From the UHGV virus genome UHGV-0359675: 13,650 bases of DNA; one strand, written 5' to 3'. Position numbers and translations under genes: made by a program. The notes under the pieces are model-generated. The model saw only the letters and a program-made list of their open reading frames with translations, was not told where the DNA came from and ran no database searches. Positions 905-10,335 of this stretch are shown in pieces. The DNA is from a virus. Every line of letters begins with the position of its first letter. Within the stretch, counting starts at the first letter, position 1.

Positions 905-1282
905 CACCCGCTTTCACGAAGGTCATGTGTAGAAGGCCGCAGCATAACTATCACTGATGAATTCAGGATAGCCAGTGGCTACGGCTCAGGTTGGGTTGTG
1001 GCGGTCGGTGCTGAACTCCGACTTAATGACGATAGGCGTGTACCGACGCCTCGTTTTACTTCCTCCGCTTTCACGGCTTCACCCTAGACCAGCTTTACGA
1101 AATCCTCGTAAACCTAACCGCGGCAGATATGACCGGCACGGTGTGCCATATCACGGACCGGCGGGTGTCTCGTTCACCTGATTAACGCATCAGCCTGCGT
1201 ATTCACCACAACGATAAGAGTACTGCGCGGCACCTTTCACCAATTCCGCGAGGTCTGCGGGTTCAATGCTCTTACCTGTTGT

Positions 1283-4817: not shown

Positions 4818-6194
4818 TCATACGTCCGCCCCTTGTGCATATCGTCTGCCACGCGCAGCAGGCGCATTTGATGCTGTGCAAATCTGTCTGGCTTCATCCT
4901 GGTCACATGCAACAAAGTGTCCGTTGCAGAACCGCTGGTAAACCGTACCAAGTGAGCCAAAACGGTTTTTCGTCACAATGATTTCAGCAAATGGCGCGGC
5001 GCTACTGTTCTCGTCATATACCGCTTCCCGATAGAGCATGATGATTGAGTCTGCGTCCTGTTCAATGCTTCCTGAATCACGCAAATCTGCGTTTGTCGGG
5101 CGTTTGTTTGGTCGCTTCTCAACATCGCGTGAAAGCTGACTTAGGGAGATAACAGGCGTTTTCAGGTCTTTCGCCATCGCCTTAAGGCTTCCTGAGATGT
5201 GGGCAATTGCGAGGTCGTTGCGATCTGCTTTCGGCTTCTCAATCAGGCCAAGATAATCCGCCATGATGAGTGACAGGTTTGGATTTTCCTGTTTGTGTCG
5301 TTCTGCGATTGAGCGTATTTCTTCGACCGATAACCGCGAGGCATCGACTACCCATACATCCAAATCTGCAAGCTGACTCATGCCGTTAGCAACACGCGCC
5401 CAGCCTTCGTCATCCATCGATGCAGGATTTCGCAGTACGCTAACCGACATCCTCCCGGCGTTGGCAATGCTTCGCTCTGCAATCTGCAATGCGCTCATTT
5501 CCATTGAGAAAATCAATACCCCGCGCCGGACGTCAGAACCAGGAATAACGCGGCTTGCAACGCCTTCGGCAATCTTCAGCGCCAGCTCGGTTTTCCCCAT
5601 ACCAGGACGAGCAGCGATTATCACCAGGTCTTCTGCGTTCATCCCTCCGGTGATGGCATCAAGTTCTTCGATTCCGGTCTTCAGGGTATCGGACTCTTCT
5701 CCGTTCCTCAGACGCCTGTCAAGCGTGTCAGTGTAGTCAGTAATGATTTCCCCTAACCGTACAGGTTTAACCTCGTCACGGGGCTTTCTGATGGCTGAAA
5801 GACGCTTTACAAGCTCATCCATCGCCTGACTCGATGCGTCGATGGTTCCGCTCTGAATTGGTTCACGCATTTCATCCATGATTTCCAGCACCAGACGGCG
5901 GTGATAGTTATCCGCGACCATTCCGGCATATCCCTTCAGGTTTGCGGCACTCGGGCAGTTTTTGCTGGTCATCAGGATTGCGGTGAAATGCTCCTCTCCG
6001 CACGCCTCGGCAACCATCAGCGCGTCGATTAGGTTTCTGTTTCTCGCCTGCTTGCGAATAACCTCGAAGGCTTTCCGGTAGAGCGGAATTGAAAACGCTT
6101 CCGGCTCCAGCGTTGCAAGAACGTCACTGGCGGTTGGAGTTAATCCACCAATCAGCAGGCCACCGATAACGCTCGCTTCGATATCCTGTCTCAT
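4818..6194 (-). CDS. Replicative DNA helicase, DnaB family (phage P-function analogue, P22 gp12-like)
   Basis: 458 aa with Walker [13 protein letters not shown] and DnaB-like C-terminal RecA-fold motifs. ATGA overlap with the upstream O-like gene. Confidence 0.88.
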
Positions 6195-7138
6195 GCAATC
6201 CCCCTGTCTGCAAACTTCCCTTCCCGAACTCCCGTTAACGAGTCTTCTCTCAGCAGGTAATCAAAATCAGCCGTCCAGCCCGTGTCGTTGTCTCCGAAGT
6301 AAAACGGCTTGGCCTGATGCACAAACGCCCTGACATACGCTCTGAAACCGTCCACGTTTGGCGTTTTCAGTTGCGGGATGATTTTCTTCAGGCGGCGTTT
6401 TCGTTTCTCGTTGACCGCAACAGCGTGTGGCAGTCTGTCACCGACTTCGGTGTTGTAGGCGTTCAGGAAGGATTCGTAGTCGATTCGTTCTGCCTTGCGA
6501 CGTTCAGGTTTAACCTGCCCATCGCCTCCCCCATTGGGGGGTAGGGGGGTATTATTTATATTCTTGTTAATACCTTCTTGTTCATGATGTGCGGTTGTTT
6601 GTGCGGCTTCATGTGCGCTTTCATGTGCGGCATGTACGCTGAAAGCCGCGCTATTGCTGGCTTCATCATGTGCGGCATCATGTGCGGTTGTTTGTGCGGC
6701 TTCATGTGCGGGTAAATTGTCCATTTTTTGAGCATATTCATGGTAATTTGTGATGGTTATCACACGGCCTTTTTGCTTCTCTCCATCAATGGAGATCATC
6801 CCCTCTTTCACAAAAACCTGAAGCATCCGCTCAACCTGATCACGGCTTGCTGGCTTGCCATGTCTGTCGCATAACTGAAGACCTAAATCAGCTGCTGTCA
6901 CAACCAGTTGACCGGGTTGCAGATGCCATTCATGACCTTTGAAATTCGCTTTGTATGGCTTTCTGGCGGCATTCAGGAGAAGGTTATCCCACAGGGTGCG
7001 AAGATAAACATCTTTCGCCCATGACTGTTTCAGAATGCTCCGGTACAACGGAATGTAACCAGTTTTCTGGTTCTCCATCCTGTTGCTCCTGCGCTCGTGT
7101 GCGGCGCTGAAATCGTAGATTTTTGCTGTATTGCTCAT
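6191..7138 (-). CDS. Replication initiator, O-like, with a His/Ala-rich repeat linker
   Basis: 315 aa. Position between cII and the helicase, and a central low-complexity linker ([16 protein letters not shown]...) encoded by the DNA repeat array, match the organisation of lambda O with its internal ori. Confidence 0.75.
6551..6711. repeat. Candidate origin of replication: 12-bp-periodic direct repeats (core TGTGCGG) in two clusters plus an adjacent AT-rich block
   Basis: Core TGTGCGG at 6588, 6600, 6624 and at 6669, 6681, 6693, 6705, with variants at 6612 and 6633. Each cluster has exact 12-bp phasing. AT-rich TATTATTTATATTCTTGTTAATA at 6551-6575 lies on the gene-downstream side, as in lambda ori. 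Confidence 0.5.
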
Positions 7139-7140
7139 AA

Positions 7141-7413
7141 CTACCTGCCTTGACGAAAGACCTTAAGAACATCGTTAAACTGACTTACGGATATGTCTTC
7201 TTTGAGAAGCTTTTCCAGAAATGCGTTTGGAATGAACGTATATCCCTCCTCTTTTGGTAGAGACGGGAGCAACGCCCTCGCCTCAGCCTTCAGAAGCTCA
7301 GTTCTGGCAACTTTCACAAAAGAGATTTGAGTTCTTTCATCAATGGAACGAAGGAAGCGCAAACGCTTAGCTTCTTTGTGTGTATCAGGTGGATTAAAGC
7401 CTTTGTTTCGCAT
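7141..7413 (-). CDS. Hypothetical 90-aa protein between cII and the O-like gene
   Basis: Start at the internal Met (MRNKGFNPPDTHKEAKRLRF...) has a GAGGT Shine-Dalgarno 7 nt upstream. The longer 181-aa track ORF overlaps cII out of frame and is rejected. No family recognised. Confidence 0.45.
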   Translation of the reverse strand: MRNKGFNPPDTHKEAKRLRFLRSIDERTQISFVKVARTELLKAEARALLPSLPKEEGYTFIPNAFLEKLLKEDISVSQFNDVLKVFRQGR

Positions 7414-7424
7414 ATAATTACCTC

Positions 7425-7490
7425 GTTGGATGTTGTTAAAATTCCATTTGTATTTGATCAGAACGCTCGGTTGCCGCCGGGCGTTTTTTA
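7425..7490 (+). ncRNA. oop: oop-like antisense RNA with toop terminator, overlapping the cII 3' end
   Basis: Perfect -10 TATAAT at 7413-7418 on the + strand. Terminator CGCTCGG-ttgccg-CCGGGCG then TTTTTTATT at 7464-7492, inside the cII 3' end and antisense to it. This is the lambda oop/toop arrangement; the sequence matches my recollection of lambda toop. Confidence 0.5.
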
Positions 7491-7729
7491 TTGGTGAGAA
7501 TCGAAGCAACTTGTCGTGCCAATCGAGCCATGTCGTCGTCGACAACACCCCATTCAAGAACAGCAAGCAGCATTGAGAACTTTGGAATCCAGTCCCTCTT
7601 CCACCTGCTGATCTGCGACTTATCAACGCCCACAGCTTCCGCTGTCTTCTCAGTTCCAAGCATTGCGATTTTGTTAAGCAACGCACTCTCGATTCTTAGA
7701 GCCTCGTTGCGTTTGTTTGCACGAACCAT
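7436..7729 (-). CDS. cII: Transcriptional activator CII (lambda-type)
   Basis: From the internal Met: MVRANKRNEALRIESALLNKIAMLGTEKTAEAVGVDKSQISRWKRDWIPKFSMLLAVLEWGVVDDDMARLARQVA.ILTNKKRPAATERS.QIQMEF, matching recalled lambda CII (97 aa). Shine-Dalgarno AAGGA is upstream. Confidence 0.9.
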   Translation of the reverse strand: MVRANKRNEALRIESALLNKIAMLGTEKTAEAVGVDKSQISRWKRDWIPKFSMLLAVLEWGVVDDDMARLARQVASILTNKKRPAATERSDQIQMEF

Positions 7730-7837: not shown

Positions 7838-8023
7838 TTATGCCGCTTTGCGGTAAGCGCTTTCTTGATACTTCAGGGCGCCAGCTGTAACGACTTCCAG
7901 TCGATAGGCGTCTTTCTCTGGGATGACTTCCTTCCACTGAGAGACTGCTGCGTCGCTAATGCCTAACGCTTTAGCTACAGCACGCTGGGTTCCGAAGTGG
8001 TCGATAACATCTTTCTTGTACAT
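7838..8023 (-). CDS. cro: Cro repressor (P22-type)
   Basis: 61 aa MYKKDVIDHFGTQRAVAKALGISDAAVSQWKEVIPEKDAYRLE.VTAGALKYQE.AYR.AA matches recalled P22 Cro. Divergent from the repressor gene across the operator region. Confidence 0.85.
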   Translation of the reverse strand: MYKKDVIDHFGTQRAVAKALGISDAAVSQWKEVIPEKDAYRLEVVTAGALKYQESAYRKAA

Positions 8024-8821: not shown

Positions 8822-8875
8822 ATTTAAGTTTTCTTCAAAAATACTCTTGACCATTAATTAAAGAGATCTTAAATT
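8822..8875 (+). promoter_or_regulatory. OL operators and pL promoter
   Basis: Operator-like 18-mers ATTTAAGTTTTCTTCAAA (8822-8839) and ATTAAAGAGATCTTAAAT (8857-8874). -35 TTGACC (8847-8852), 17-nt spacer, -10 TAAATT (8870-8875), directed toward nutL and N. Confidence 0.55.
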
Positions 8876-8920
8876 TAAGCCATCAGCAGGACGCTGGAAG
8901 CCAAACGGAAAAGATTGGCA

Positions 8921-8962
8921 GGCTCTTTAACATTGATGGGATTGTCCCGCCGAAATGCGGGA
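8921..8962 (+). promoter_or_regulatory. nutL: boxA (GGCTCTTTAACA) plus boxB hairpin
   Basis: boxA-like GGCTCTTTAACA at 8921-8932. boxB TCCCGC-cgaaat-GCGGGA at 8945-8962, sharing the 19-nt core TCCCGCCGAAATGCGGGAA with nutR in transcript sense. Confidence 0.6.
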
Positions 8963-9275
8963 ACCAAAGAGTAGTTGGCTTTGGGGTGACGTGAAGTGCA
9001 GCTGCACGACGGCAACCGGAAGATAAGCACCCGGCGCGTCACCGCCAAAGTCAATTCCATAGGCGTTATGCAGCCGCCACCATATTCAAGAAAGCTGCAC
9101 AAGAGGTAGGAGGATTTATGTGAATACTTACATTCAATTGAGAGATTAATTAAATAGAACTGATCGAGCAGAGTCCATAAAGGCTCATAAATGCTCTTCC
9201 ATCCCCGTCTAATTGGCGGGGAAGGAAACCACTTTGTAATAAAAAAATTCCAAAGTTGTTTCATCGGAGGTCAAC

Positions 9276-9575
9276 ATGACAGTAGTCATTACATATCTGG
9301 CTGACGATAACGCCAGAAATCGCCGCAGAGCACGCAGACAGGCTCAACGTGAACAGGCAATGCAAGAACAGCGACTGGCGCGAAAGATTGCGCTAAAGCT
9401 CTCTGGTTGCGTCAGAGCAGACAAAGCAGCATCACTCGGAAGCCTTCGCTGCAAGAAGGCAGAAGAAGTCGAGAGTAAACAGAATCGTATTTACTACCGC
9501 AAGCCACGCAGTGAAATGGGGGTGACTTGTGTTGGTCGCCAGAAAATGAAATTAGGAAGCAAACCACTTATTTGA
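9276..9575 (+). CDS. N: Antitermination protein N (lambda/21-type C terminus, distinct arginine-rich motif)
   Basis: 99 aa. N-terminal arginine-rich motif NARNRRRARRQAQREQ. C-terminal ...NRIYYRKPRSEMGVTCVGRQKMKLGSKPLI parallels recalled lambda N (...RTWYSKPGERGITCSGRQKIKGKSIPLI). Shine-Dalgarno GGAGG upstream. Confidence 0.8.
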   Translation: MTVVITYLADDNARNRRRARRQAQREQAMQEQRLARKIALKLSGCVRADKAASLGSLRCKKAEEVESKQNRIYYRKPRSEMGVTCVGRQKMKLGSKPLI

Positions 9576-9912: not shown

Positions 9913-10335
9913 ATGGAAGAACAAGCAAACAAGATTCTCGTAGAACTTCTGCAAAAAGCCAGTAATGGAATAGACGCGGCTGTTTCATTTAGCCAGGCAC
10001 AGATTCCTGATGTTGTTCGTCAGTTGCTAACATGGAGTTTTGTCCATAGCGCACTTTTCCAAGTGGCTGGGTTGTTGCTTTTAATTGCAGCAATGAAACT
10101 TCCTAGTTTTGCAAGAACGGCAAGAAATAATGGCGAGAGATGGACGTCTTTAGATGGATGTCCAAACGATAGATATTTTATATCTTCGTTTTATTACGAT
10201 ATATGCACTGTATTTGCTCCTATATTTGGCTCAATTATTGGCGTTTTAATTATTGCCTTCAATTTCGAATGGTTGAAGATTTGGCTTGCACCTAAGTTAT
10301 TCCTAATTGAATATGCAGCATCATTGGTTAAGTAA
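9913..10335 (+). CDS. Hypothetical 140-aa membrane protein with two predicted TM helices; possible superinfection-exclusion function (positional inference only)
   Basis: Hydrophobic segments SFVHSALFQVAGLLLLIAAMKL and FAPIFGSIIGVLIIAFNFEWLKIW. Follows ral, where lambda and P22 carry sieB. An intrinsic terminator follows at 10340-10366. Confidence 0.5.
   Translation: MEEQANKILVELLQKASNGIDAAVSFSQAQIPDVVRQLLTWSFVHSALFQVAGLLLLIAAMKLPSFARTARNNGERWTSLDGCPNDRYFISSFYYDICTVFAPIFGSIIGVLIIAFNFEWLKIWLAPKLFLIEYAASLVK

Follow-up and report, generated by a model that had tools for sequence, protein, structure and literature searches.

A small conserved ORF between cII and the O-like initiator gene of a lambdoid prophage

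Genes and features of the locus

The window analysed here, a 13 650-nt stretch of the virus genome UHGV-0359675, comes from a lambdoid (CUS-3/P22-like) prophage, of which it is the immunity/replication region; its orientation is the reverse of that of the usual lambda map. Along its minus strand run a cro-like gene, cII, a 90-aa ORF (below, simply the ORF), an O-like initiator gene and a gene for a DnaB-type helicase (Table 1). The ORF opens with an ATG at 7413-7411, continues for 90 codons and closes with a TAG at 7143-7141. A preliminary description of this DNA had placed a 90-aa frame with a good GAGGT Shine-Dalgarno sequence at 7141-7413, and our analysis agrees, putting both on the minus strand at a spacing of 6 nt.

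Table 1. Coordinates of the ORF and of the features around it in the window
Feature	Position	Strand	Remarks
90-aa ORF with TAG stop	7141..7413	-	Small basic protein; PHROG 2519; RefSeq WP_001244621.1 'hypothetical protein'
Shine-Dalgarno GAGGT of the ORF	7420..7424	-	6 nt 5′ of the ORF ATG; equivalent of the lambda O ribosome-binding site
Putative -10 (TATAAT) of the oop-like antisense promoter, p_o	7413..7418	+	Base 7413 common with the ORF start codon; matches the position of lambda CATAAT
Oop-like antisense RNA (predicted)	7426..7493	+	5′ end inferred from lambda; terminator antisense to the cII 3′ end
Intrinsic terminator	7460-7487	+	12-bp G+C-rich hairpin followed by a T-run; 42 nt downstream of TATAAT
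cII, 97 aa, lambda-like	7436..7729	-	Pfam Phage_CII, 5.2e-48; RefSeq annotation; stop 22 nt 5′ of the ORF start
cro-like gene	7838-8023	-
cI-like repressor gene		+
129-aa ORF	8875-9264	-	Between the repressor gene and the N-like gene; UTI89_RS28850 'hypothetical protein'
N-like gene	9276-9575
AAGGCAGG, Shine-Dalgarno-like, for the O-like gene	7144..7151	-	In the last codons of the ORF (Q-G-R), 5 nt before the O start
O-like initiator, 315 aa from the first ATG	6191..7138	-	Phage_rep_O, 2.3e-15; phrog_345; begins 2 nt past the ORF stop
Iteron-like direct repeats (presumed origin)	6581..6723		Inside the O-like gene; four copies of a repeat containing TCATGTGCGG
DnaB-type helicase gene	4818-6194	-
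TTGCN6TTGY motif (CII-box type)	7707-7720	+	At the cII 5′ end, where lambda has pRE
TTGCN6TTGY motif (CII-box type)	1540-1553	+
TTGCN6TTGY motif (CII-box type)	10075-10088	+

The iteron-like repeats also encode part of the O-like protein, a repetitive His/Ala-rich linker whose length varies among loci. Motifs of the CII-box type occur three times in the window where 2.0 are expected, which is not above chance; the two that lie away from cII may mark CII-activated antisense or integrase promoters. Within the ORF itself there is neither such a motif nor any repeat. A promoter and terminator scan around the ORF returned no promoter-like or terminator-like site on the sense strand. The ORF is therefore not an autonomous moron, a reading that its close spacing also speaks against, with 22 nt between the cII stop and its start and 2 nt between its stop and the O start.

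The protein has been catalogued before. The PHROG 2519 HMM matches it over its full length (E 1.9e-57, residues 1-90 aligned with profile positions 1-90 of 90) and is likewise matched by all 18 aligned relatives; the label of this family is 'unknown function'. No Pfam, NCBIfam or PADLOC family matches the ORF above threshold, and the sole hit among the PADLOC defence models, JetB, is not significant (E 0.021, 13 bits). The statement in the preliminary description that the ORF has no recognisable family thus holds for Pfam and NCBIfam, and for families with a function, and gives way to the full-length match in PHROGs. Nor did Pfam, NCBIfam or PHROGs reveal any likeness to known lysogeny regulators.

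In UTI89 the RefSeq annotation of the protein, WP_001244621.1, is 'hypothetical protein', and the ORF is labelled 'hypothetical' in phages JEP4, Kapi1 and Gally; CUS-3 and ~48 records of Stx2a-converting phages contain it without annotation. Together with the 5′ end of O it occurs in 277 of 5426 complete E. coli genomes (~5%), with uropathogenic and avian pathogenic strains (UTI89, S88 and APEC O1) among the carriers. Our literature searches found no paper that names WP_001244621, and none that deals with what an ORF located between cII and O might do. The 2.7-kb record OR850084.1, titled 'Staphylococcus phage SA 1298 Kay', contains a copy of this enterobacterial ORF with 74% identity. Its match statistics equal those of a Salmonella phage record from the same accession series, OR850760.1, and the entry is probably mislabelled or contaminated.

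Selection on the ORF and its linkage to the initiator gene

Homologues were gathered from E. coli, Salmonella, Scandinavium, Pseudescherichia and metagenomes. Among nine diverged copies, most pairwise dN/dS values fall in the range 0.03-0.17 and synonymous sites are close to saturated; the variable alignment columns are spread 32/30/81 over the three codon positions. The top dN/dS value, 0.38, belongs to a pair that includes locus L010, whose 3′ half is almost identical to that of the window. Homologues with 71% identity or more are 90 aa long, apart from two Salmonella forms of 86 aa, and those down to ~50% identity measure 90-93 aa, without internal stops. All 80 IMG/VR copies retrieved are intact, and the exact protein, which belongs to a cluster of 500 variants, is found on at least 1000 contigs; the clusters of frameshifted forms hold 8, 3 and 4 variants only.

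Poor conservation with frameshifts in related prophages was named in the preliminary description as grounds to doubt the gene. This objection fails in view of the conservation, the dN/dS values and the intact copies: the check turned up strong purifying selection and frames that are open nearly everywhere. Judged from these comparisons, the ORF is a genuine, selectively maintained protein-coding gene in the pR operon, and a pseudogene is rejected by dN/dS.

Two kinds of rearranged copy deserve mention. The L010 ORF (3001-3261) is a recombinant, with a first half of the Salmonella L005 type (MRKITEMHKEVKRSRFLQSIDKKTSLRFAAVARTELLKAEAR) and a second half nearly identical to that of the window, followed by a 98%-identical O gene; mosaic junctions therefore fall within this small ORF. 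Proteins P0020 and P0024, from some E. coli contigs, join the first 52-54 residues of the ORF in frame to the last ~68 of the DnaB-like helicase; they result from deletions of O and most of the helicase gene, presumably in decaying prophages.

In all 13 diverged enterobacterial loci cII is followed by the ORF, the ORF by an O-like initiator gene, and this by a gene for a DnaB-type helicase or, in its place, for a lambda-P-type loader (as in L003). The junction CAAGG(C/A)AGGTAGnnATG, in which the ORF stop and the O start are arranged as TAG-nn-ATG, is kept in 11 of these loci, and in the two most distant ones the ORF stop overlaps the initiator ATG (ATGA). A search of complete E. coli genomes gave, among the matches listed, no window-type O 5′ end that lacked the ORF. 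Homology to the window is lost 75-80 bp 5′ of the ORF, at the cII 3′ end/oop terminator, in 26 of 80 close relatives; in none of the 80 is it lost between the ORF and O, and the nearest right-hand break lies 465 nt into O. From the tight junction and this pattern of breaks we conclude that the ORF travels with the replication module. Its partners there are varied, comprising two types of O DNA-binding domain and both P-type and DnaB-type proteins, and the cII genes on its other side are of at least three divergent types.

Annotations disagree on where the O-like gene begins. RefSeq and most gene callers choose an internal ATG at 7078 that is preceded by AGGAG and gives a protein of 295 aa. Starting at the first ATG (7138) adds 20 residues. 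The O-like 5′ end, ATGAGCAATACAGCAAAAAT, is homologous to the lambda O 5′ end, and the 20-residue extension is kept in frame in all loci, including L014, where it carries an indel of one codon. An in-frame indel of this size supports the upstream start as the probable one. The N-terminal residues of lambda O are its ClpX recognition signal, and by analogy the conserved N-terminal tail of the O-like protein may be a degron.

RNA around the O start is unstructured, less folded than shuffled controls (z = +1.6). A hairpin that masks the O start is accordingly rejected.

The cII-initiator slot and the oop-like unit

The window was aligned with lambda's own record across both junctions of the ORF. 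Just 5′ of the ORF start the window reads CAACGAGGTAATTATATG, the counterpart of CAACAGGAGTCATTATG at the ribosome-binding site and start of lambda O; this alignment includes the ORF Shine-Dalgarno sequence, which is kept in related loci. Just past the ORF stop the window reads GTTATGAGCAATACAGCAAAAAT, the counterpart of the lambda O start CATTATGACAAATACAGCAAAAAT. With both correspondences in place, the ORF is, relative to lambda, an insertion of ~275 bp exactly at the O initiation codon. Lambda has no gene in the slot between cII/oop and O, and the extra gene that the preliminary description had seen there is borne out by this alignment. The ORF has thus taken over the ribosome-binding site and the start position that O uses in lambda.

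Other lambdoid phages also have a small gene in this slot. The orf48 of P22 (DUF2740, PF10872) lies between c1, the cII homologue, and the O-like gene 18; its start codon falls inside the annotated oop promoter of the curated record, in the same AGGAGTAATTATG context, its 3′ end overlaps the initiator start, and it too has no assigned function. It encodes 48 aa rather than 90. None of the 18 ORF-family members has a Pfam match to the DUF2740 model at E ≤ 1, and hhalign of the ORF family with 17 DUF2740 sequences was not significant (E 0.057, probability 1%), aligning only a 16-residue HKxxxRxRFL patch. P22 orf48 is a positional analogue of the ORF and not a demonstrated homologue. In epsilon34, whose gene order is described in PMC2629481, the slot between cII and the O homologue is occupied by gp49, a small ORF labelled 'conserved hypothetical', whose 3′ end overlaps the O start and whose upstream context (GGAGAGGTAATTATG) is identical; gp49 is 53 aa long, and BLASTP found no similarity to the ORF. 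According to its record note, gp49 is also ST104 ORF27 and a 'gene 42 protein', NP_958217.1. The ORF is, then, a further small ORF in a cII-initiator slot already known for them.

Slots that hold unrelated small genes in different phages are typical of 'cargo' positions, and the ORF could be an early accessory directed at the host (host takeover, superinfection exclusion or anti-defence) that sits in a permissive site of the pR operon with no part in replication. Lambda manages without a gene here, the ORF is combined with differing O types and helicase modules, and its protein has no recognisable fold, all of which fit such a role. Cargo of this kind is harder to square with a gene that has no promoter or terminator of its own, that gives no significant match among defence models beyond the JetB hit above, and that recombination never parts from O in 80 close relatives; it would also leave the C-terminal likeness to initiators, described below, unexplained. 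We regard a host-directed function as a plausible but rather doubtful explanation.

The ORF start also touches an antisense promoter. That a TATAAT on the opposite strand overlaps the start codon, as the preliminary description noted, is correct, the overlap being the single base 7413. The hexamer by itself is not beyond chance (three in the window, 4.6 expected), and the promoter scan leaves p_o uncalled because its -35 is poor (TGGATT). We assign it as the probable p_o -10 from its location, its homology to lambda and its conservation, the start context AATTATATGCGAAA, and hence the TATAAT opposite, being invariant in 13 of 13 related loci. The predicted oop-like RNA folds as two hairpins (-21 kcal/mol, z = -2.6); Rfam, which has no family for oop-like RNA, gave no match anywhere in the window.

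Compared with lambda, the segment made up of the cII 3′ end and the oop terminator differs little, and the terminator hairpin and the 3′ half of the predicted RNA do not differ at all. Both phages have the -10 over the start codon of the first gene past cII, the ribosome-binding site of that gene between the -10 and the transcript start, and a terminator antisense to the cII 3′ end, which is the architecture of a lambda-type oop unit. The window differs in having TATAAT in place of CATAAT, with a shift of 2 nt, in the poor -35, in the 5′ third of the RNA and in the gene overlapped, which is the 90-aa ORF here and O in lambda. A distant relative, L014, keeps the overlap of TATAAT and start codon with a different cII and terminator sequence, and has a terminator-like hairpin with a T-run at the same place, antisense to the cII 3′ end (1144-1161, minus strand). 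This suggests that the oop-like antisense unit is conserved as an architecture and not only as a sequence.

The preliminary description made too much of the interlocking of sense and antisense expression, which is no peculiarity of the ORF, lambda O with p_o and P22 orf48 being arranged alike. Read on the opposite strand, the lambda p_o -10 (CATAAT) becomes ATTATG, with the O ATG in it, and the interlocking is therefore the ancestral lambda layout.

The same facts bear on the idea that the ORF modulates the choice between lysis and lysogeny together with CII or oop, for example by stabilising CII, or through an effect of its translation on firing of the oop promoter. It lies directly downstream of cII, its start and ribosome-binding site are inside p_o, and the AATTATATGCGAAA overlap persists where cII and the oop terminator have diverged in sequence. 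An overlap that lambda O and P22 orf48 share does not single out the ORF protein, though, and recombination parts the ORF from the body of cII in the 26 of 80 loci noted above and never from O. The variety of cII types with which it is found, and its lack of likeness to known lysogeny regulators, further make such a modulator improbable.

Resemblance to O/DnaD-type initiators and a possible role

ORF residues 55-88 (EEGYTFIPNAFLEKLLKEDISVSQFNDVLKVFRQ) resemble the beginning of the O/DnaD-type origin-binding domain. The Pfam model Phage_rep_O (PF04492) matches 16 of 18 family members below threshold, with a best E-value of 5.2e-5; the window ORF scores 14.6 bits (E 0.048) over profile positions 6-39 of 95 only, and the gathering threshold of 28.7 bits is reached neither by it nor by the best family member. 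Three O-like or DnaD-like PHROG families, 678, 2365 and 16826, match 16, 10 and 7 of the 18 members. An ungapped BLASTP alignment pairs ORF 55-88 with lambda O 26-59 at 29% identity (E 5e-4 as a single comparison), and the family HMM scores 12.5 bits against the lambda O N-terminus. Alignment by hhalign of the ORF family with the neighbouring O proteins is in the same register and not significant (E 0.39).

The elements in common with the N-terminal domain of lambda O are a G-Y-x-x-hydrophobic-x-N motif, a helix, an 'L-S/T-x-x-Q-F' motif and a second helix, and the ORF moreover starts at the site where O starts in lambda. The ORF has ~35 of the 95 profile positions, with the recognition helix, the wing and the whole C-terminal half absent; its N-terminal 54 residues have no counterpart in O, and a complete O-like gene comes next. 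A complete winged-helix domain with a C-terminal domain that recruits helicase or loader, in all ~300 aa, is not present in these 90 aa, and with its end ahead of the recognition helix and wing the ORF cannot encode a whole DNA-binding domain. We therefore describe the likeness of residues 55-88 to O as a probable remote similarity and not as established homology.

In an exhaustive HMMER profile search of 1.84 billion representatives, every protein retrieved was a small member of the same family and none had initiator length, which rejects the ORF as a fragment of a known longer protein. AlphaFold models reached a pLDDT of 83.8 with 18 sequences and 57.6 with 12. The predicted structure has a long helix (10-51) followed by a short beta-hairpin and a pair of short helices (63-86), with no wing or recognition helix; a fold search with the model found no match, nor did a sequence search of the PDB with the family profile at E ≤ 10.

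The remains, without function, of the 5′ end of an initiator gene since displaced, or a leader that has to be translated for O expression but whose amino-acid sequence is irrelevant, would account for C-terminal 35 aa that resemble the O start, a protein that stops mid-domain, a tight stop-start junction with O and the few frameshifted alleles and deletion fusions, but is made very improbable, and largely refuted, by a dN/dS of ~0.1 with third-position variation dominant, by a length kept to ~50% identity without internal stops, by intact alleles that far outnumber the frameshifted ones and by a confident AlphaFold model with 18 sequences.

The explanation that we prefer, tentatively, is that the ORF is an accessory of the replication module, translationally coupled to O. 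Our observations at this locus cover the selection on the gene, its position, its linkage to O and a stop codon that abuts or overlaps the O start; coupling to O, descent from an initiator 5′ end and an accessory role are our best guess at what lies behind these. The ORF would be made from the early rightward (pR) transcript and would belong to the replication and not to the immunity module. Its translation would use the ribosome-binding site and the start position that serve O in lambda, the former flanked by the -10 and the transcript start of the antisense oop promoter. Because the ORF stops 2 nt before the O start, or in distant relatives overlaps it, ribosomes that finish the ORF are placed to restart on O, and reinitiation of this kind would tie the synthesis of O to that of the ORF protein. 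With the junction RNA unstructured, coupling, if real, would work by proximity and not by the unmasking of a hairpin. O may also be translated independently of the ORF.

As to the protein, it may descend from the 5′ end of an initiator gene and may aid O-dependent initiation as a small accessory that contacts O or the O-DNA complex. Any such interaction would need a conserved feature, given that the ORF is found with two O domain types and with P-type and DnaB-type partners. Linkage of the ORF to O can also reflect mere adjacency.

A more specific form of the replication-accessory explanation, which we consider unlikely, makes the ORF a truncated initiator paralogue. It would consist of the N-terminal strand-helix-helix of the O/DnaD domain joined to a long helix, and coupling would supply it in a fixed ratio with O. 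The protein would then join or cap O oligomers at the origin, or shield the O N-terminal tail, and so tune the timing and strength with which the prophage origin fires. If this were true, the paralogue would be a built-in 'initiator mimic', a regulator not described for lambdoid phages.

On present evidence the ORF is a routine 'conserved hypothetical', already catalogued, with one interesting evolutionary hint. The sole element that is even mildly surprising is the combination of a truncated-initiator likeness with a tight junction to the true initiator. The ORF nevertheless sits at the lambda cII-oop-O junction, among the best-studied of regulatory regions, yet has no assigned function. If it does not modulate the initiator, it simply adds another small accessory gene to a slot already known to vary. 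If it does, it would affect the output of prophage induction, including the replication of Shiga-toxin phages, and would constitute a new layer of lambdoid replication control.
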